Positions 11,600-37,294 of a DNA stretch of 64,000 nt are shown in pieces. The notes below the pieces were generated by a model. That model was not told the origin of the DNA and ran no database searches. It worked only from the letters and a program-made list of their open reading frames with translations. The position numbers and the translations under genes are program-made. The stretch is taken from assembly GCA_028716065.1 (NCBI GenBank), contig JAQUQN010000002.1, positions 6,485 through 70,484 of the forward strand, written 5' to 3'. Numbering within the stretch: position 1 is the stretch's first letter; each line of letters opens with the position of its first letter. Source of the stretch: Candidatus Omnitrophota bacterium (GTDB lineage: Bacteria > Omnitrophota > Gorgyraeia > 2-01-FULL-45-10).

Positions 11600-12565
11600 A
11601 TGCCTACCCGTAAAGTTGATTCTAAATTACACAAAATAAGGGACTCCGCAAAGATCTTGAAAGAGTCTCTCGAAAGATGCAGCATCTGTCCGCGCAGATG
11701 CGGCATAAACAGGATCAGAGGAGAGAGGGGTTACTGCAGGGCCGGGCTGCAACCAGCAGTATATAGCCATTCTCCTCACCATGGAGAGGAGCCGCCTCTC
11801 TCAGGGACGCGGGGCTCCGGCACCATATTCTTTACTTATTGCAACATGAAGTGCGCCTATTGTCAGAATTATTACTTCAGCCAGCTCGGGCACGGCGTGG
11901 AGATATCCATAGAAAAGCTTTCCGAGATAATGCTCGGGCTTGAAAAACACGGATGCCATAATATAAATCTCGTAAGCCCGACCCATTTCGTACCGCAGAT
12001 AGTGATGGCGCTGGAGATGGCCGTTGGCAAGGGACTGGATATACCGATCGTCTATAATAGCGGCGGATATGACCTGCCGCGGACATTACGCCTGCTTGAA
12101 GGTATTGTCGATATATACATGCCCGACATGCGGTATAGCGACGACAATACCGCAAAAAAGTATTCGGATGCGGAAGACTATGTTAAATATAACCGCGGTT
12201 CCGTGATGGAGATGCAGCGGCAGGTCGGAGATCTCTTACTCGACGAGAATGGTATCGCCGAAAAAGGGTTGATCGTCAGGCTTCTGGCGCTGCCGCAAGA
12301 GCTGTCCGGTATAAAAGAAAGTTTAAAGTTTATAAAAGACAGGGTCAGCGGAAACGCCTACCTGAGTATCATGAGCCAGTACTACCCTACATATAAGGCC
12401 TATGATTTTAAAGAGCTATCGCGCGGCGTGACGAAGGAAGAGTATAAGAATGTTGTTGACGAGGCAAAGAGATTAGGGTTAAATAATGGTTGGATACAGG
12501 AGAGGCCCCGACAGCAAGACGTTACTTTCCTGGGTACAAACATAAAACCAAAAAGGGAAATTTAA
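11600..12565 (+). CDS. Radical SAM protein (PflX / PFL-activase-like)
   Basis: CNMKCAYCQN radical-SAM cluster motif, about 320 aa. Confidence 0.8.
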   Translation: MPTRKVDSKLHKIRDSAKILKESLERCSICPRRCGINRIRGERGYCRAGLQPAVYSHSPHHGEEPPLSGTRGSGTIFFTYCNMKCAYCQNYYFSQLGHGVEISIEKLSEIMLGLEKHGCHNINLVSPTHFVPQIVMALEMAVGKGLDIPIVYNSGGYDLPRTLRLLEGIVDIYMPDMRYSDDNTAKKYSDAEDYVKYNRGSVMEMQRQVGDLLLDENGIAEKGLIVRLLALPQELSGIKESLKFIKDRVSGNAYLSIMSQYYPTYKAYDFKELSRGVTKEEYKNVVDEAKRLGLNNGWIQERPRQQDVTFLGTNIKPKREI

Positions 12566-12566
12566 G

Positions 12567-13280
12567 ATGCCTGAGAAGGAAAATAAAGGCGCTTCTTACG
12601 CCAGGCAACTGGAAGCGATCTCGAAGGTCAGCAAGACCATCACATCCGGACTATATCTGGAAGAGATCCTGAAACTCATCGTAACCGTGACGGCGGAGAT
12701 AATGAACTCAAAGATATGTTCACTGATGCTGTTAGATGAGAAGAGCAACATGCTCGTGCTCAAGGCAACGCAGTCGATGAGCGAGGTCTATAATAAGAAG
12801 TCCCCCTTGAAGGTAGGCGAGGGCATTGCGGGCAAGGTCGCGCAACAGAACAGCCCTATGGCAATATATGATATAGCCAAGGAGGCGGAATATAAAAATA
12901 AGGACATAGCAAAAAAAGAAGGATTAAAATCCCTTCTATCCGTCCCTCTGGCAGTAAAGGGCAGGGTAATAGGCGTACTCAATAATTACACTTCTCACCC
13001 TCACAAGTTCATTAAAAGCGAAGTCGAACTTCTGACCACGGTAGCAAACCAGGCTGCCATAGTGATAGAAAACGCGGCGCTGATGCTAAAAGCGAAGGTC
13101 ATGCAGGACGAACTTGAGACCAGAAAAACGGTCGAAAGGGCCAAGGGGGTACTGATGCGCACCCAGGGCCTTTCCGAAGAGGAGGCGTTCAGAAAGATAC
13201 AGAAACAGAGCATGGACATGAGAAAAACGATGCGCGAGATTGCCGAGGCCATCCTGCTTCTCGAGAAGATGAAATCCTGA
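12567..13280 (+). CDS. GAF-ANTAR RNA-binding antiterminator-type regulator (paralog 1)
   Basis: GAF-like N-terminal two-thirds (GEGIAGKV...VPLAVKGRVIGVLN). C-terminal ANTAR signature (ERAKGVLMRTQGLSEEEAFRKIQKQSMDMRKTMREIAEAI). Confidence 0.85.
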   Translation: MPEKENKGASYARQLEAISKVSKTITSGLYLEEILKLIVTVTAEIMNSKICSLMLLDEKSNMLVLKATQSMSEVYNKKSPLKVGEGIAGKVAQQNSPMAIYDIAKEAEYKNKDIAKKEGLKSLLSVPLAVKGRVIGVLNNYTSHPHKFIKSEVELLTTVANQAAIVIENAALMLKAKVMQDELETRKTVERAKGVLMRTQGLSEEEAFRKIQKQSMDMRKTMREIAEAILLLEKMKS

Positions 13281-13315
13281 CCCATGTTAGGCAATAAAAA
13301 GTTGCTACTTTATGA

Positions 13316-13343
13316 TTGACAGAATCTGAAAATATGGTATACT
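13316..13343 (+). promoter_or_regulatory. Sigma70-type promoter (TTGACA-N16-TATACT, TGn) for nadE leader
   Basis: Exact -35. Followed by two leader terminators. Confidence 0.6.
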
Positions 13344-13361
13344 TATTATGAAGAGACAAGG

Positions 13362-13398
13362 ATGTCTTTCGGCAAAGTATGCTGAAAGACATTTTTTA
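13362..13398 (+). terminator. nadE leader terminator 1
   Basis: 13-bp stem ATGTCTTTCGGCA / TGCTGAAAGACAT (one G.U), loop AAGTA, then TTTTTT. Confidence 0.75.
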
Positions 13399-13408
13399 TA
13401 GACTAGGG

Positions 13409-13448
13409 CGTCTAGATCCGATATTGCGGATATAGGCGTTTTTTGTTT
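13409..13448 (+). terminator. nadE leader terminator 2
   Basis: CGTCTA-g-ATCCG-atattg-CGGAT-a-TAGGCG (11 bp, one G.U), then TTTTTTGTTT. Ends 12 nt before the nadE ATG. Confidence 0.55.
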
Positions 13449-13460
13449 ATAGGCGGTTTT

Positions 13461-15143
13461 ATGAAGAGAAATATGCGTTTTGCGATAGCCCAGATCGATT
13501 GTTGTGTAGGCGATTTTGAAGGCAACCTTAAGAAGATGACGGCCTGCCTTCAACAAGCCAAGCAGACGGGGGTGGATATTATAGCCTTTCCGGAACTTGC
13601 TGTGACGGGCTATCCCCCTGAAGATCTCCTCCTCAAGGCCAGATTCATAGATGAAAATCTGGAGACCTTGAGAAAGTTATCCAGGTCCGTAGAAGACGTG
13701 GTGGCCGTTATAGGTTTTGTCGACAGGATAGGCTCGGATATATATAATGCGGCAGCGGTAATATATAAAGGCAAGGTGCTAGGAAAATACTATAAGATGT
13801 TCTTGCCCAATTACGGCGTATTCGATGAGCACAGGTATTTCAGGCAGGGTAAGGAACCAATAGTATTCAAGTGGGGCGATCTGGTATTCGGTGTCAATAT
13901 ATGCGAGGACATATGGCATGAGGATGGGCCCACCCGCGCCCAGGCTTCTAGAGGCGTGAAGGTCATAATAAATATCAACGCCTCGCCTTATTACAGCGGA
14001 AGGATCAGGGAAAGGGAGGAGGCCGTAAAAAGCCAGGCAATAGAGAATAAGGTCCATGTGGTTTACGCCAATCTCGTAGGAGGACAGGACGAACTGATCT
14101 TCGATGGCCAGAGCATGATAGTGGATAATAACGGAAAGATAATAAAAAAGGCCGAGGCCTTCAAGGAAGACTTGCTTATTGCTGACCTGGAGATACCGGA
14201 AAACTCTGAAAGATTGAAGGACCTTTATATTACTATCGGTGATAGCGTACCTCCAAAAGATAAGCCTGGTCTGGTCCGGAAAGAGGTAAAGCAGTTAGAC
14301 CCTGTTAGCGAGGTATATGAAGCGCTGGCCCTGGGATTGAGGGACTATGTGACCAAAAACGGTTTTAAAAAAGTGGTTCTCGGATTAAGCGGAGGGATAG
14401 ACTCGTCCCTCGTTGCCTCCATAGCAACGGATGCCATGGGCAAGGACAATGTTATCGGAATTTACATGCCTTCCCGCTACTCTTCATCCGATTCGGAAAA
14501 TGACGCCAAAAAACTGGCTGCGAATCTAGGCATACAGCTTTTGACCATAAGTATCGAGCAGATATTTAAAATATCCCTGATGTCGCTGGACCCTAAATTT
14601 TCCGGACTGGCCAAAGATTCGACCGAAGAGAACCTTCAGGCGCGTATAAGGGGAAACATCCTGATGGCACTTTCAAATAAATTCGGGTGGCTGGTATTGA
14701 CAACCGGAAATAAATCGGAGATGAGCACGGGTTATTCTACATTGTATGGCGACATGGCAGGAGGACTGGCCGTTATAAAGGATGTCCCCAAAACTTTAGT
14801 TTATAAACTGGTTAAATACAGGAATACGGTGAGCGCTGTGATACCCGAGTCGGTGATCAAAAAGGAGCCCACGGCTGAACTGAAACACGACCAAAAGGAT
14901 AGAGACACCCTGCCTCCCTACGATGTGCTGGATCCTATCCTGAAGGCATATGTGGAGGATGATAAGGGACTGAAGGAAATAGTGGCATTGGGTTTTAACA
15001 AGGATACCGTATGCAAAGTCCTGAACATGGTCGATAGAAGCGAATATAAACGCCGCCAATCGCCTCCGGGTTTGAAGATAACCCCTAGGGCGTTCGGCAG
15101 GGACAGGAGAATGCCGGTTACCTCTAGATATAAAGAATATTAA
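13461..15143 (+). CDS. nadE: Glutamine-dependent NAD+ synthetase (CN-hydrolase + NAD synthetase domains)
   Basis: N-terminal nitrilase-like domain (FPELAVTGYPPEDL, NICEDIW). C-terminal SGGIDSS PP-loop. Start chosen at ATG 13461. Confidence 0.9.
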   Translation: MKRNMRFAIAQIDCCVGDFEGNLKKMTACLQQAKQTGVDIIAFPELAVTGYPPEDLLLKARFIDENLETLRKLSRSVEDVVAVIGFVDRIGSDIYNAAAVIYKGKVLGKYYKMFLPNYGVFDEHRYFRQGKEPIVFKWGDLVFGVNICEDIWHEDGPTRAQASRGVKVIININASPYYSGRIREREEAVKSQAIENKVHVVYANLVGGQDELIFDGQSMIVDNNGKIIKKAEAFKEDLLIADLEIPENSERLKDLYITIGDSVPPKDKPGLVRKEVKQLDPVSEVYEALALGLRDYVTKNGFKKVVLGLSGGIDSSLVASIATDAMGKDNVIGIYMPSRYSSSDSENDAKKLAANLGIQLLTISIEQIFKISLMSLDPKFSGLAKDSTEENLQARIRGNILMALSNKFGWLVLTTGNKSEMSTGYSTLYGDMAGGLAVIKDVPKTLVYKLVKYRNTVSAVIPESVIKKEPTAELKHDQKDRDTLPPYDVLDPILKAYVEDDKGLKEIVALGFNKDTVCKVLNMVDRSEYKRRQSPPGLKITPRAFGRDRRMPVTSRYKEY

Positions 15144-15187
15144 ACTCCTATCGCGTTGAAGAGATAGGATACTAAAAGGTGCGATGC

Positions 15188-15231
15188 AGCCCTTTATGCG
15201 CAAAGTAGGCGTGTAAAGGGCTTTAGTTTTT
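15188..15231 (+). terminator. nadE 3' terminator
   Basis: AGCCCTTTA / TAAAGGGCT, 9 bp, 17-nt loop, tail TTAGTTTTT. Confidence 0.65.
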
Positions 15232-15240
15232 ACAAGGCTG

Positions 15241-15789
15241 GTGATAAGAATGAACTTAAATTTCGAAACGCTCGTCAATAGAATAACGCCCACGCTGAAA
15301 AGGATAACGCACCGGCTTAACGGCCATTTTACCTTTTTCGACGACGATGATCTATACCAGGAGGCCGTGACATATCTATGGCCGCTCTTCCAAAGAGGCA
15401 GACTTGGCGACAAGACGGACAGTTATATCCTACAGGGCTGTTATTTTCATCTTAAAAATTATATACGCACCTCGATGGACAAGGCCAAATTGATAAGCAT
15501 CTATAAGATAATAGATGCTGACGAAACCGAGCTTGGCGCGGTCCTGGCCGCGAAGGAGACGCCGGATCCGGAAAATCTGGAATACAAGATATTACTGAAA
15601 GAATCGGATAGGATGGGCCTGACGGAAAAGGAAAGGCGCGTTATATCATATTCATTGGAGGGACTTACTACAAGAGAGATAGGCGACCGCCTCGGTGTAT
15701 CTCACGTAATGGTGCTAAAGATAAAGGGAAAGATCAAACATAAGCTGCGTATTTTCAGAAATGAATACCGGAGAGGTTACCAAAATTAG
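15241..15789 (+). CDS. Sigma-70 family (ECF-like) RNA polymerase sigma factor
   Basis: Region-2-like DDLYQEAVTYLW. Region-4 HTH LTEKERRVISYSLEGLTTREIGDRLGVSHVMV. Confidence 0.7.
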   Translation: MIRMNLNFETLVNRITPTLKRITHRLNGHFTFFDDDDLYQEAVTYLWPLFQRGRLGDKTDSYILQGCYFHLKNYIRTSMDKAKLISIYKIIDADETELGAVLAAKETPDPENLEYKILLKESDRMGLTEKERRVISYSLEGLTTREIGDRLGVSHVMVLKIKGKIKHKLRIFRNEYRRGYQN

Positions 15790-15814
15790 GCATTTTTTAC
15801 TTGTAGAATCGTAG
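15774..15814 (+). promoter_or_regulatory. Conserved 41-nt box, copy 1 (upstream of porin-amtB-glnK)
   Basis: AGGTTACCAaAaTtAgGCATTTTTTACTTGTAgAaTcGTAG. 34/41 identical to 18917-18957. Contains a TAnAnT -10-like hexamer. Overlaps the sigma-factor stop codon. Confidence 0.6.
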
Positions 15815-15849
15815 CCTTGGCAACAAAGGCTAAAGACACATAGAAGTGT
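15812..15849 (+). promoter_or_regulatory. Tandem leader hairpins (amtB operon leader)
   Basis: TAGCCTT-GGCAACA-AAGGCTA and, 3 nt later, ACAC-ATAGAA-GTGT. The second has a hexaloop with A at position 1 and G at position 4, as in ANTAR target loops. Confidence 0.45.
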
Positions 15850-15859
15850 AAAAATGACG

Positions 15860-15896
15860 AAGGCGTTTGGAAGATAAAACGCCTTTTATTTTTTTC
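15860..15896 (+). terminator. amtB-operon leader terminator a
   Basis: AAGGCGTTT-ggaagata-AAACGCCTT then TTATTTTTTT. The 5' arm carries ACGAAGGCGTT. Confidence 0.75.
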
Positions 15897-18562: not shown

Positions 18563-18904
18563 ATGAAACTGATAATCTCTATAATACAGCCGCATAGGCT
18601 TGAAAAGGTGCTGGAAGAATTGAACAAATCGGGAATCAGCCTGAGGACCGTATCCAACGTCCTGGGTTGCGGCAGGCAGAAAGGCCACACCGAGGTATAT
18701 CGCGGGAGGAAAGAGACGGGTAACCTTCTTAAAAAGGTACGCCTCGAAATTGCCGTCAATGAAGATTTCGTGGAACCTACGGTCAGGGCCATCATAAAAG
18801 GGGCAAAGACCGGAGAGATCGGAGACGGGAAGATATTTATAGCCGATCTGGCCGAATGCATAAGGATACGGACCGGGGAGAGGGGCGGCGAGGCGATAGG
18901 GTAA
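18563..18904 (+). CDS. glnK: P-II nitrogen regulatory protein
   Basis: 113 aa with T-loop [12 protein letters not shown] (Tyr51 retained) and DGKIFI. Directly downstream of amtB. Confidence 0.9.
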
Positions 18905-18916
18905 ACTTTAAAAAAT

Positions 18917-18957
18917 AGGTTACCAGAGTAACGCATTTTTTACTTGTATAGTTGTAG
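18917..18957 (+). promoter_or_regulatory. Conserved 41-nt box, copy 2 (upstream of glnA)
   Basis: AGGTTACCAgAgTaAcGCATTTTTTACTTGTAtAgTtGTAG, starting 13 nt after the glnK stop. Confidence 0.6.
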
Positions 18958-18967
18958 GGTATTAATA

Positions 18968-18983: not shown

Positions 18984-19010
18984 CCAAAAATAGGCAAACT
19001 TAAAGAACAG

Positions 19011-19066
19011 AGGCGTTCATTTTGGTCAGCGAGTGATTTGACCGAGTGAGCGCCTTTTTATCTTTT
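19011..19066 (+). terminator. glnA leader terminator
   Basis: 16-bp stem AGGCGTTCATTTTGGTC / GACCGAGTGAGCGCCT (three G.U, one bulge), then TTTTTATCTTTT. Ends 28 nt before the glnA ATG. Confidence 0.7.
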
Positions 19067-20658: not shown

Positions 20659-20668
20659 AGGCATTGAT

Positions 20669-20854
20669 ATGGATGACAACCTACCCATTTACAGAACGAT
20701 CATAGCGCAGGTTGAAAAACCGCTCATAGAGATGGCCCTGGAGAGAACGAGCGGCAATCAGATCAGGGCCGCCGAACTGTTAGGGATCAATCGTAATACG
20801 ATCCGCACCAAGATAAAAAAACTCGGCATCGACGTCAAGAGATGGAAGGTATGA
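20669..20854 (+). CDS. Stand-alone Fis/NtrC-C-terminal-type HTH protein (61 aa)
   Basis: [26 protein letters not shown] is an HTH_8-type motif. Its stop overlaps the gltB start (ATGA). Confidence 0.65.
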
Positions 20855-29090: not shown

Positions 29091-29119
29091 ATATCATCAA
29101 TATTATGTTAAAAGGGGAC

Positions 29120-29159
29120 AAAGACGTCCGCTAAAAAAAGCGGCGTCTTTTTTTATTTT
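29120..29159 (+). terminator. nfnAB-gdhA leader terminator
   Basis: AAAGACG-t-CCGC-taaaaaaa-GCGG-CGTCTTT (11 bp, one bulge), then TTTTATTTT. About 25 nt after the promoter -10. Confidence 0.75.
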
Positions 29160-32886: not shown

Positions 32887-32902
32887 ATAATGAGAAAGGA
32901 CG

Positions 32903-32933
32903 AAGGCGTTCGAAAGAACGCCTTTCTCTTTTT
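32903..32933 (+). terminator. GAF-ANTAR-2 leader terminator 1 (may also end the gdhA transcript)
   Basis: AAGGCGTTC-GAAA-GAACGCCTT then TCTCTTTTT. The 5' arm carries ACGAAGGCGTT. Confidence 0.65.
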
Positions 32934-32973
32934 AGACAACCTTTCTCTTTCAACGCGGAAAACCTGGATAAAG

Positions 32974-33018: not shown

Positions 33019-33025
33019 ATGAACG

Positions 33026-33070
33026 AAGGCGTTCTGTGCCGATAAACGGCGCATTGCGCCTTATTTTTTT
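33026..33070 (+). terminator. GAF-ANTAR-2 leader terminator 3
   Basis: Outer AAGGCG/CGCCTT plus inner TGTGCCG-ataaa-CGGCGCA, then TTATTTTTTT. The 5' arm carries ACGAAGGCGTT. Ends 10 nt before ATG 33081. Confidence 0.7.
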
Positions 33071-33080
33071 AGGTGACGCC

Positions 33081-33776
33081 ATGTCATACGAAGAACAGAT
33101 AAAGGCATTATCACGGATAAGCAGGGCCATAGCATCCGATCAATACCTGGAAGATATCCTACGCCTCATAGTCACGGTAACCGCGGAGATGATGGGTTCG
33201 AACATATGTTCGCTCATGCTGCTGGATGAGAACAGGAATGAGCTCATCATAAGGGCGACTCAAAGCGTAAGCGATGCATACAATAAAAAACCACCAGTAA
33301 AAATAGGCGAAGGCATAGCAGGCAAGGTATTCAAGGAGAAGGTGCCGGTAAAGGTCCTTGACGTGCGCAAAGATAAAAATTACATAAGCAGGAGCATAGC
33401 GAAGAAAGAAGGGCTGTGCTCGCTCCTGTGTGTACCCCTGATAGTCAAGAATAAGGCCATAGGGGTCCTAAATTGCTACACATCGAAACCCCGCGATTTC
33501 AGCGAGACGGAGACGAATATCCTGGCGACCATCGCCAATCAGGCGGCGGTAGCCATAGAGAATACGGAATTGATGGTCAGGAGCAAGGTCATACAGGAAG
33601 AGCTGGAGGTACGTAAGAAGATAGAACGCGCCAAGGGCATCATAATGAAGAGGGAGGGATTGAAAGAGGAAGAGGCCTATTTAAAACTCAGGAAATACAG
33701 TATGGATAGCCGTAAGACGATGCGCGAAATAGCGGATGCCATCATTCTTACGGAGGATTTAAGCAAGAAATTATAA
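33081..33776 (+). CDS. GAF-ANTAR RNA-binding antiterminator-type regulator (paralog 2)
   Basis: Roughly 55% identical by eye to 12567-13280. ANTAR signature ERAKGIIMKREGLKEEEAYLKLRKYSMDSRKTMREIADAI. Start at ATG 33081, downstream of the leader terminators. Confidence 0.85.
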   Translation: MSYEEQIKALSRISRAIASDQYLEDILRLIVTVTAEMMGSNICSLMLLDENRNELIIRATQSVSDAYNKKPPVKIGEGIAGKVFKEKVPVKVLDVRKDKNYISRSIAKKEGLCSLLCVPLIVKNKAIGVLNCYTSKPRDFSETETNILATIANQAAVAIENTELMVRSKVIQEELEVRKKIERAKGIIMKREGLKEEEAYLKLRKYSMDSRKTMREIADAIILTEDLSKKL

Positions 33777-35584: not shown

Positions 35585-35619
35585 GTTCGAGTAGCTCAGA
35601 GCGGATCTACTATAAAAAC

Positions 35620-37294
<1,675 letters not shown>

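Follow-up and report, generated by a model that had tools for sequence, protein, structure and literature searches.

The 64,000-nucleotide (nt) stretch of a Candidatus Omnitrophota metagenome-assembled genome analyzed here (the window) carries a gene for a GAF-ANTAR protein (GAF-ANTAR-1, or ANTAR-1) followed directly by nadE, which encodes the glutamine-dependent NAD+ synthetase. The interval between them contains a promoter and two intrinsic terminators (T1 and T2), each overlapped by a small upstream hairpin (Pa and Pb, respectively). Analysis of this nadE leader and of its homologs revealed a real conserved cis-regulatory element, which is most likely an ANTAR-controlled attenuator. The features of the locus, all on the forward strand, are the following:

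12567–13280, forward strand: GAF-ANTAR-1 gene, 237 amino acids, stop codon 13278–13280; Pfam ANTAR (3.5e-22) and GAF_2 (1.9e-21)
13316–13343, forward strand: sigma-70-type promoter with an extended -10 element, TTGACA-N16-TGgTATACT, matching 11 of 12 consensus positions
13352–13369, forward strand: Pa hairpin, AAGAGAC-AAGGAU-GUCUUU, candidate antiterminator of T1
13362–13398, forward strand: T1, an intrinsic terminator with a 13-base-pair (bp) stem (13362–74 with 13380–92) followed by a U-run
13399–13414, forward strand: Pb hairpin, UAGAC-UAGGGC-GUCUA, P2-type, candidate antiterminator of T2
13408–13448, forward strand: T2, a composite intrinsic terminator with outer stem 13408–14/13433–39, inner hairpin 13416–31 and tail U5-G-U3 (13440–13448)
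13451–13456, forward strand: Shine-Dalgarno-like AGGCGG, read from the sequence, 4 nt upstream of the nadE ATG
13461–15143, forward strand: nadE, 560 amino acids, Pfam CN_hydrolase and NAD_synthase

The identity of nadE is supported by a score of 739 bits against NCBIfam NF010588 (cutoff 479). Its ATG at 13461 is in frame with an open reading frame spanning 13443–15143, and the N-terminus, MKRNMRFAIAQ, lines up with the starts of its relatives, which have AGGTG at the site matching AGGCGG. The start of the GAF-ANTAR-1 gene overlaps the end of a radical-SAM gene located upstream. The same locus is also present on a Logan contig.

To compare leaders, related loci were obtained by a metagenome scan with alignment of ANTAR-1 orthologs, which retrieved 80 of about 335 loci, and by exact-protein look-ups, which added nine more. 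In all 42 evaluable orthologs, that is, those with enough flanking sequence, nadE directly followed GAF-ANTAR-1. A gap of 0–45 nt separated the two genes in 20 of these loci, forming one operon without a leader, and the other 22 had a leader of 121–416 nt homologous to that of the window. Because one leader (L108) duplicated another (L102), 21 were distinct, and these fell into three architectures:

both modules, Pa/T1 and Pb/T2: 15 leaders (those other than the six named below)
Pb/T2 only: 5 leaders (L088, L091, L096, L105 and L162)
Pa/T1 only: 1 leader (L164)

The occurrence of leaders with only T1 or only T2 indicates that neither module needs the other and that T1 is a genuine terminator of the leader; L164 has no terminator upstream of nadE other than T1. 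Other variation affected the spacing between elements. An insertion of about 130 nt of repeated CTTCGACARGCTCAG units, which may be a small mobile or repeat element, lies between T1 and Pb in L104 (about 1830–1930), and in L162 (2217–2290) and L168 (2217–2480) the ANTAR-1 stop is separated from the nadE promoter by an additional large hairpin or long structured insert, which probably terminates transcripts of the upstream operon.

The nadE promoter consists of TTGACA (13316–13321), a 16-nt spacer and TATACT (13338–13343), with the TG of the extended -10 element at 13335–13336; its -35 box begins 36 nt past the GAF-ANTAR-1 stop codon, and transcription is predicted to start at about 13350. All 14 Omnitrophota leaders from the metagenome scan had a promoter of the form TTGAC(A/C)-N16/17-TGnTA(T/A)A(C/A/T/G)T, and eight further leaders had a comparable but more degenerate one (e.g. 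TTGACT, TAAGAT). The 121-nt leader folds with a predicted energy of −45.5 kcal/mol (z = −7.3 relative to dinucleotide shuffles), and none of 200 shuffles was as stable.

Both T1 and T2 have the stable G+C-containing hairpin and U-run of an intrinsic terminator, with predicted energies of −17.9 kcal/mol (U5-6) and −15.7 kcal/mol (U5GU3), respectively. An earlier note on this DNA, made by reading the sequence, had described T1 as a perfect 13-bp terminator followed by six U residues. The 13-bp stem indeed has no mismatch, comprising 12 Watson-Crick pairs and one G-U pair (G13371-U13383), and the tail consists of five U followed by A, reaching six U only when U13392 is assigned to the tail instead of the stem. 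The loop of T1 is AAGUA, or the 7-nt AAAGUAU (13374–13380) when the closing A-U pair does not form. In the alignment of 17 leaders, 94.7% of the cells in the T1 stem were paired, two pairs showed compensatory changes from CG to UA, and the covariation score exceeded those of all 500 shuffles and all slid controls; the stem ranged from 10 to 13 bp and the U-run was retained in every leader. The outer stem of T2, in which GCGUCUA pairs with UAGGCGU, includes two G-U pairs, and T2 ends about 12 nt before the nadE start. Conservation of T2 was comparable in 15 leaders (94.7% of cells paired), with compensatory changes at five pairs, and between 0 and 16 of 500 shuffles reached the observed measures. 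Neither T1 nor T2 was listed by a simple terminator scan of the window, and both were recovered as consensus structure by an unguided RNAalifold analysis of the homologous leaders. Thus, the promoter, the two-terminator leader ahead of a glutamine-dependent NAD synthetase gene and its start 36 nt after GAF-ANTAR-1, all described in the earlier note, are confirmed; what the note had missed in this leader was Pa and Pb, the two elements that overlap the terminators and would give the mechanism.

The 3′ arm of Pa, whose core stem pairs AGAC (13354–57) with GUCU (13364–67), doubles as the 5′ base of T1, and the loop and 3′ arm of Pb overlap the 5′ arm of T2. The overlap of Pa with T1 was kept in 17 leaders and that of Pb with T2 in 15. 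The folds at each site are mutually exclusive. At site A, Pa alone was predicted at −4.9 kcal/mol and Pa together with a shortened T1 tip at −10.0 kcal/mol, compared with −17.9 kcal/mol for T1; at site B, Pb together with the inner T2 hairpin was predicted at −10.0 kcal/mol, compared with −15.7 kcal/mol for T2. Since the terminators are more stable than the small-hairpin folds, by about 6–8 kcal/mol, termination would be the default outcome, and the energies are compatible with switching that depends on a protein. The AGAC/GUCU stem of Pa was invariant in 17 of 17 leaders, and because AGAC is fixed, whereas the 3′ strand of T1 with which the same GUCU pairs is variable (A/G, C/U), the upstream AGAC appears to be under the tighter constraint. 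The Pb stem showed one compensatory change among 15 sequences, from GC to AU in the window itself, where the T2 partner strand changes to match, so that the variant GUCU strand meets an A in its Pb partner as well as in its T2 partner. In sum, both stop signals are real conserved terminators, each competing with a small upstream hexaloop hairpin.

The arrangement of these hairpins resembles the RNA targets of ANTAR proteins, which are described as two hairpins of at least 3 bp with hexaloops bearing A at position 1 and G at position 4 (A1/G4), the second hairpin overlapping a terminator (Ramesh 2012, PMC3369931). More recently, the first hairpin (P1) was reinterpreted as the site of recruitment and the second as the hairpin that prevents termination, with successive binding and a single hexaloop as the minimal target (Walshe 2022, PMC8934654). 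The overlap geometry of Pa/T1 and Pb/T2 matches this published rule (PMC3369931, PMC8934654): Pa and Pb are stem-loops with 3 bp or more, and the 3′ part of each is shared with the 5′ part of its terminator. In addition, the genome encodes ANTAR-domain proteins, from two GAF-ANTAR genes. Finally, G occupies loop position 4 in Pa, the T1 tip and Pb. In the Pa loop, which was 6 nt in 16 of 17 leaders, position 1 was a purine in 17 of 17 (10 A, 7 G), position 2 was A in 16 of 17 and position 4 was G in 17 of 17. The 7-nt T1 tip loop had A at position 1 in 15 of 17 leaders, a variable position 2 and G at position 4 in 17 of 17, and the Pb hexaloop had U at position 1 in 14 of 15 aligned leaders, a variable position 2 and G at position 4 in 15 of 15. 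The Pb loop was 6 nt in all 15 sequences of the first set and 7 nt in one later sequence. The remaining positions of the three loops vary freely, apart from positions 5–6 of Pb (GC), which are conserved because they are part of the T2 5′ arm. In most leaders the T1 stem does not include the Pa loop, whose conservation is therefore not accounted for by pairing within the terminator.

The similarity of the T1 tip to an ANTAR hairpin raises the question of whether T1 terminates at all, or instead acts mainly as a pause and recruitment hairpin, in which case the T1 tip, the linker and Pb would make up one canonical ANTAR site, with T1 as its P1, and only T2 would attenuate. The A1/G4 loop of the T1 tip, like those of the P1 hairpins in the glnA and ANTAR-2 leaders of the window, fits this idea, as does the T1-Pb linker of 6–15 nt (6 nt in the window and 12–15 nt in relatives) when compared with 5–12 nt in the Enterococcus faecalis eut leaders; a nadE leader from Nitrospira, described below, likewise has a short P1 followed by a U-run. 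We nevertheless regard this explanation as rather unlikely, because T1 is a 10- to 13-bp, −17.9 kcal/mol structure with a conserved U-run, has an overlapping hexaloop hairpin of its own in Pa, is the sole terminator of L164, and is parted from Pb in L104 by the insertion, which lengthens the linker to about 150 nt. Five leaders have site B without any T1.

Downstream of nadE, the forward strand encodes an ECF-like sigma factor, a porin, Amt, PII (18563–18904), GlnA, GltB and GltD-like proteins, GDH, a second GAF-ANTAR protein (ANTAR-2, about 33081–33776, 58% identical to ANTAR-1), a glutamate-synthase-domain protein, PyrG and CarAB. A loose terminator/antiterminator scan of the window was discarded as noisy (49 and 148 "terminators" on the two strands) in favor of a stricter composite motif, defined as a stem of at least 4 bp capped by the hexaloop NNNG(G/A)C and overlapped by a terminator that has a U-run. 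This motif occurred 45 times on the coding (forward) strand and once on the reverse strand across 0.39 Mb of related loci; 0.82 Mb of unrelated NadE loci contained 10 on both strands together, three of them in one Nitrospira locus. The genes downstream of the motif encoded NadE, the porin, Amt-PII, ANTAR-2 (in tandem copies), a glutamate-synthase-like protein, GDH, DUF1846 and the ECF-like sigma factor. The modules in the window are:

nadE leader, forward strand: two copies of the motif or a close variant
15178–15231, forward strand: module between nadE and the ECF-like sigma factor gene, hairpin GGUGC-GAUGCA-GCCC(U) overlapping terminator T3
15188–15222, forward strand: T3, tip loop AAAGUAG followed by a U-run; listed by the simple terminator scan
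15859–15895: module before porin-amt-PII
19005–19062: module before glnA
29116–29157: module before the DHODB-FeS/GltD-like pair
32898–32935 and 33021–33070: tandem modules before ANTAR-2
35615–35665: module before pyrG-carAB, with a weak U-tail only

Several of the targets are glutamine amidotransferases, and the tandem copies before ANTAR-2 suggest that this gene is autoregulated. Upstream of the radical-SAM/ANTAR-1 operon no ANTAR module was found, and thus none to imply autoregulation of ANTAR-1. The hairpin at 15178–15231 has a small stem with an internal mismatch, making it a weaker candidate for an ANTAR-type module; in relatives, the intergenic region between nadE and the sigma factor gene has a G4 hexaloop (GAUGAC, AAAGAA or AAAGAC) before the same CCCUUUAU terminator arm, and some relatives also have an upstream hairpin with a GCUGNN hexaloop in this region. 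Upstream hairpins in the glnA leader (GGCAC-GCAGUA-GUGCC) and the ANTAR-2 leader (GGCAC-AAAGUCA-GUGCC) have loops resembling the T1 tip. In the tandem ANTAR-2 leader of one relative (L130), a terminator tip, GC-AAAGUCU-GC, lies just upstream of the next small hairpin, a relay layout like that of T1 followed by Pb. Terminator tips of the 45 modules were otherwise variable, revealing no general A1/G4 tip rule; the rule holds for T1 (17 of 17) and for T2 in the five leaders without T1, although these numbers are small. In a separate observation, the porin/amt (15790–15815) and glnA (18935–18960) leaders have in common, upstream of the hairpins, the sequence GCATTTTTTACTTGTA(K)A(R)T, which is unlike the TTGACA-N16/17-TGnTATACT promoters of the nadE, ANTAR-2 and pyrG leaders and whose spacing does not fit the sigma-54 consensus.

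These results bear on a simpler possibility, namely that T1 and T2 are unregulated, serving to end transcripts that run on from the radical-SAM/ANTAR-1 operon while letting through a small, steady amount of nadE transcript, and that the overlapping small hairpins are accidental. Both terminators are strong, as conventional terminators would be, the Pa and Pb stems show almost no covariation, and nadE is simply co-transcribed with ANTAR-1 in 20 relatives. However, the conserved promoter lies upstream, not downstream, of the terminators and T2 ends so close to the nadE start that constitutive terminators would throttle the gene's own promoter to no purpose, and accident leaves the invariant G4 loops, the invariant AGAC and the 45-to-1 strand bias before nitrogen genes unexplained; we therefore consider this explanation quite unlikely. 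Control by something other than an ANTAR protein, be it an NAD+ or glutamine riboswitch, another RNA-binding protein such as PyrR or a leader peptide starting at the ATG at 13348, is highly improbable, for although ligand feedback would be logical for an enzyme that makes NAD+ from glutamine, 10 of 14 leaders have an ATG after the -10 box and the leader weakly matched the PyrR site (20 bits, with a gathering score of 54), Rfam returned no family at the gathering threshold across the whole 64 kb window and no NAD+ or glutamine riboswitch in the leader even at E ≤ 10, and the leader is made of simple hairpins only, with no conserved multi-helix junction. The leader peptide itself (17 codons) was rejected: its ATG lies 4 nt past the -10 box with no Shine-Dalgarno sequence and is absent from 4 of 14 leaders, and the lengths and stops of the reading frame are not conserved.

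ANTAR-dependent attenuation has to accommodate several features that weigh against it. Rfam offered no model against which the leader could be scored. The loop at the T1 tip has 7 nt (or 5 nt) rather than 6, and the canonical A at loop position 1, which most other leaders of these genomes have, gives way to U in Pb (14 of 15) and occurs in only some 60% of Pa loops. Upstream of site A there is no separate P1 hairpin, since Pa starts 2–4 nt past the predicted transcription start, leaving the T1 tip as the only second loop. There is also almost no covariation in the small stems, Pa being invariant and Pb having one compensatory change with scores often reached by shuffles; support for the antiterminator hairpins is thus that of conservation and analogy. 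RNAalifold paired part of the Pa loop with the U-run, which could be part of the reason for the conservation of A at position 2, but a G-U pair does not account for the invariant G at position 4. Finally, because 20 of 42 relatives have a leaderless nadE that forms part of the ANTAR-1 operon, attenuation appears, from the loci compared, to be an option of some lineages and not a fixed feature.

Comparison with more distant genomes suggested that the motif also occurs before nadE elsewhere. The best match in a genome-contig search with NadE had 66% identity, so that this search gave no close relative of the window, and the resulting set served as a diverse control and as the source of loci L001, L002 and L076. 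Among 76 diverse NadE loci from GTDB genomes, the motif was found directly upstream of nadE in three and in none on the reverse-strand control. In two of these, metagenome-assembled genomes (MAGs) of Latescibacterota and Syntrophorhabdaceae, a GAF-ANTAR gene is immediately upstream. In the third, the MAG of Nitrospira sp. NOB03 (L076, 5880–5975), the nadE leader contains a canonical dual A1/G4 hexaloop arrangement, GGGGAC-AACGGA-GUCUCC and then GGAC-AAUGAC-GUCC with a terminator, and the first hairpin is followed by a U6 run, like T1 of Omnitrophota; no GAF-ANTAR gene was found within 6 kb, and two further copies of the motif lie about 3.4 kb downstream. The nadE motif thus appears to recur independently outside Omnitrophota. 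A whole-word literature search found no paper treating a link between ANTAR proteins and nadE, and a supplementary table lists an ANTAR RNA match upstream of an "uncharacterized NAD+ synthetase" in Desulfotomaculum carboxydivorans (Ramesh 2012, Table S2, PMC3369931). Consequently, RNA-level nitrogen control of NAD synthesis as a "new layer", as the earlier note put it, was an overstatement. Its suggestion of a nitrogen and ANTAR link agrees with the shared motif before glnA, amt-PII, ANTAR-2 and other nitrogen genes and with the invariable position of nadE after ANTAR-1, and the likeness it saw between the T1 tip and the glnA and ANTAR-2 hairpins reflects a common A1/G4 "(A)AAGU" loop, the conservation of which in nearly all relatives had escaped it.

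Several other observations concern the neighborhood. The block of radical-SAM, GAF-ANTAR-1, NadE and ECF-like sigma factor genes (11600–15789 in the window) is conserved in Omnitrophota relatives (loci L082–L117 and L162–L170). The radical-SAM gene of this block has no assigned function; radical-SAM genes are among the ANTAR targets listed for Geobacter (Ramesh 2012, Table S2, PMC3369931). A short open reading frame of about 60 amino acids (20668–20850), which lies immediately ahead of gltB and overlaps its start, resembles by eye a Fis/NtrC-type helix-turn-helix.

Taken together, these results make it probable that the interval comprises the nadE promoter and a 5′ leader that acts as an ANTAR-type transcription attenuator with two protein-dependent stages, and nadE most likely belongs to an RNA-level nitrogen regulon of this bacterium. 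Transcription would start at about 13350 from the extended -10 promoter, and the nascent RNA could adopt either Pa with the shortened T1 tip or the full 13-bp T1 at site A, and either Pb or the composite T2 at site B. An active, dimeric GAF-ANTAR protein would presumably bind the G4 loops of Pa, the T1 tip and Pb; binding would keep the small hairpins closed and block completion of T1 and T2, allowing RNA polymerase to read into nadE. With its tip at the place expected for the P1 recruitment hairpin of site B, T1 may serve as both the stage-one terminator and the stage-two loading site. The regulator could be ANTAR-1, which is adjacent to nadE and strictly syntenic with it, or ANTAR-2, which has the motif in its own leader.

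The GAF domain probably senses nitrogen status, in the form of glutamine and/or 2-oxoglutarate. In both ANTAR paralogs this domain has its best matches in the GAF domains of PtsP (EI-Ntr; PDB 3trc, 3ci6) and NifA, which respond to these two metabolites, so a nitrogen-status signal is plausible. By this mechanism nadE would be co-regulated with glnA, amt-glnK, glutamate-synthase-like genes, ANTAR-2 and pyrG-carAB.

More speculatively, we suggest as a tentative extension, which we think doubtful as a whole but possible, that the ANTAR site here departs from the textbook order of P1, linker, P2 and terminator and is a clamp formed by the 5′ hexaloop hairpin and the terminator's own A1/G4 apical loop, so that protein binding would split the 13-bp terminator into two short protein-held hairpins (Pa and the T1 tip) and the T1 tip would hand the protein on to Pb, as a relay in two stages. 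Given the relationship of its GAF domain to those of PtsP and NifA, such a system would amount to a one-protein, RNA-level nitrogen sensor coordinating the glutamine-consuming amidotransferases (NadE, PyrG, CarAB and the GltB-like protein) with GlnA and Amt, with GAF-ANTAR-1 and NadE as a fixed functional pair.

If ANTAR control of this leader is correct, nadE would recur as a target in the ANTAR nitrogen regulons of at least four or five phyla, a role for which the earlier basis was one line of a supplementary table, and in the uncultivated phylum Omnitrophota much of nitrogen and glutamine-amidotransferase metabolism would be run through transcription attenuation. The nadE leader would also offer a concrete, mutation-ready RNA target for GAF-ANTAR proteins, a common domain architecture without a characterized example (Ramesh 2012, PMC3369931) and one in which a 2025 review mentions GAF merely as a domain type. 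The natural variants, with T1 and T2, T2 only, T1 only or no leader, could serve as a test series for the number of hairpins that an ANTAR dimer needs.

The closest characterized parallel is provided by the eut leaders of E. faecalis, controlled by EutV (PMC3369931, PMC8934654), which likewise have a G4 hexaloop hairpin whose 3′ side overlaps the 5′ side of a terminator, a second A1/G4 loop (here 6–15 nt upstream), an ANTAR protein encoded nearby, and use in tandem and across a regulon. The nadE leader departs from the eut system in its presumed regulator, a GAF-ANTAR protein in place of a REC-ANTAR response regulator, and in its small hairpin loops, which begin with U in Pb and with A or G in Pa. 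Moreover, a complete terminator with a 7-nt loop takes the place of "P1" at site B, a separate P1 is lacking at site A, and the nadE leader is known from its sequence. The nitrogen regulons that a covariance search predicted for ANTAR proteins in Desulfotomaculum, Pelobacter, Geobacter and other bacteria (Ramesh 2012, Table S2) resemble the one proposed here in targeting glutamine synthetase, glutamate synthase, the ammonium transporter with PII, and an ANTAR gene. They differ from the present case, which involves Omnitrophota (with Nitrospira, Latescibacterota and Syntrophorhabdaceae), a GAF sensor, strict synteny of ANTAR with nadE, a tandem two-terminator nadE leader, and a regulon that reaches pyrG-carAB. 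The NasR/nasF and AmiR/amiE systems share a single-protein sensor fused to ANTAR, an A1/G4 hexaloop before the leader terminator and nitrogen-related targets, but they use a NIT sensor or an AmiC partner, one terminator per leader and other target genes. Finally, in Azospirillum, glutamine-dependent NadE is reportedly under PII-dependent control at the protein level, which similarly ties NAD+ synthesis to nitrogen status; there, however, control acts on the enzyme, whereas in the attenuator proposed here it would act on the transcript.

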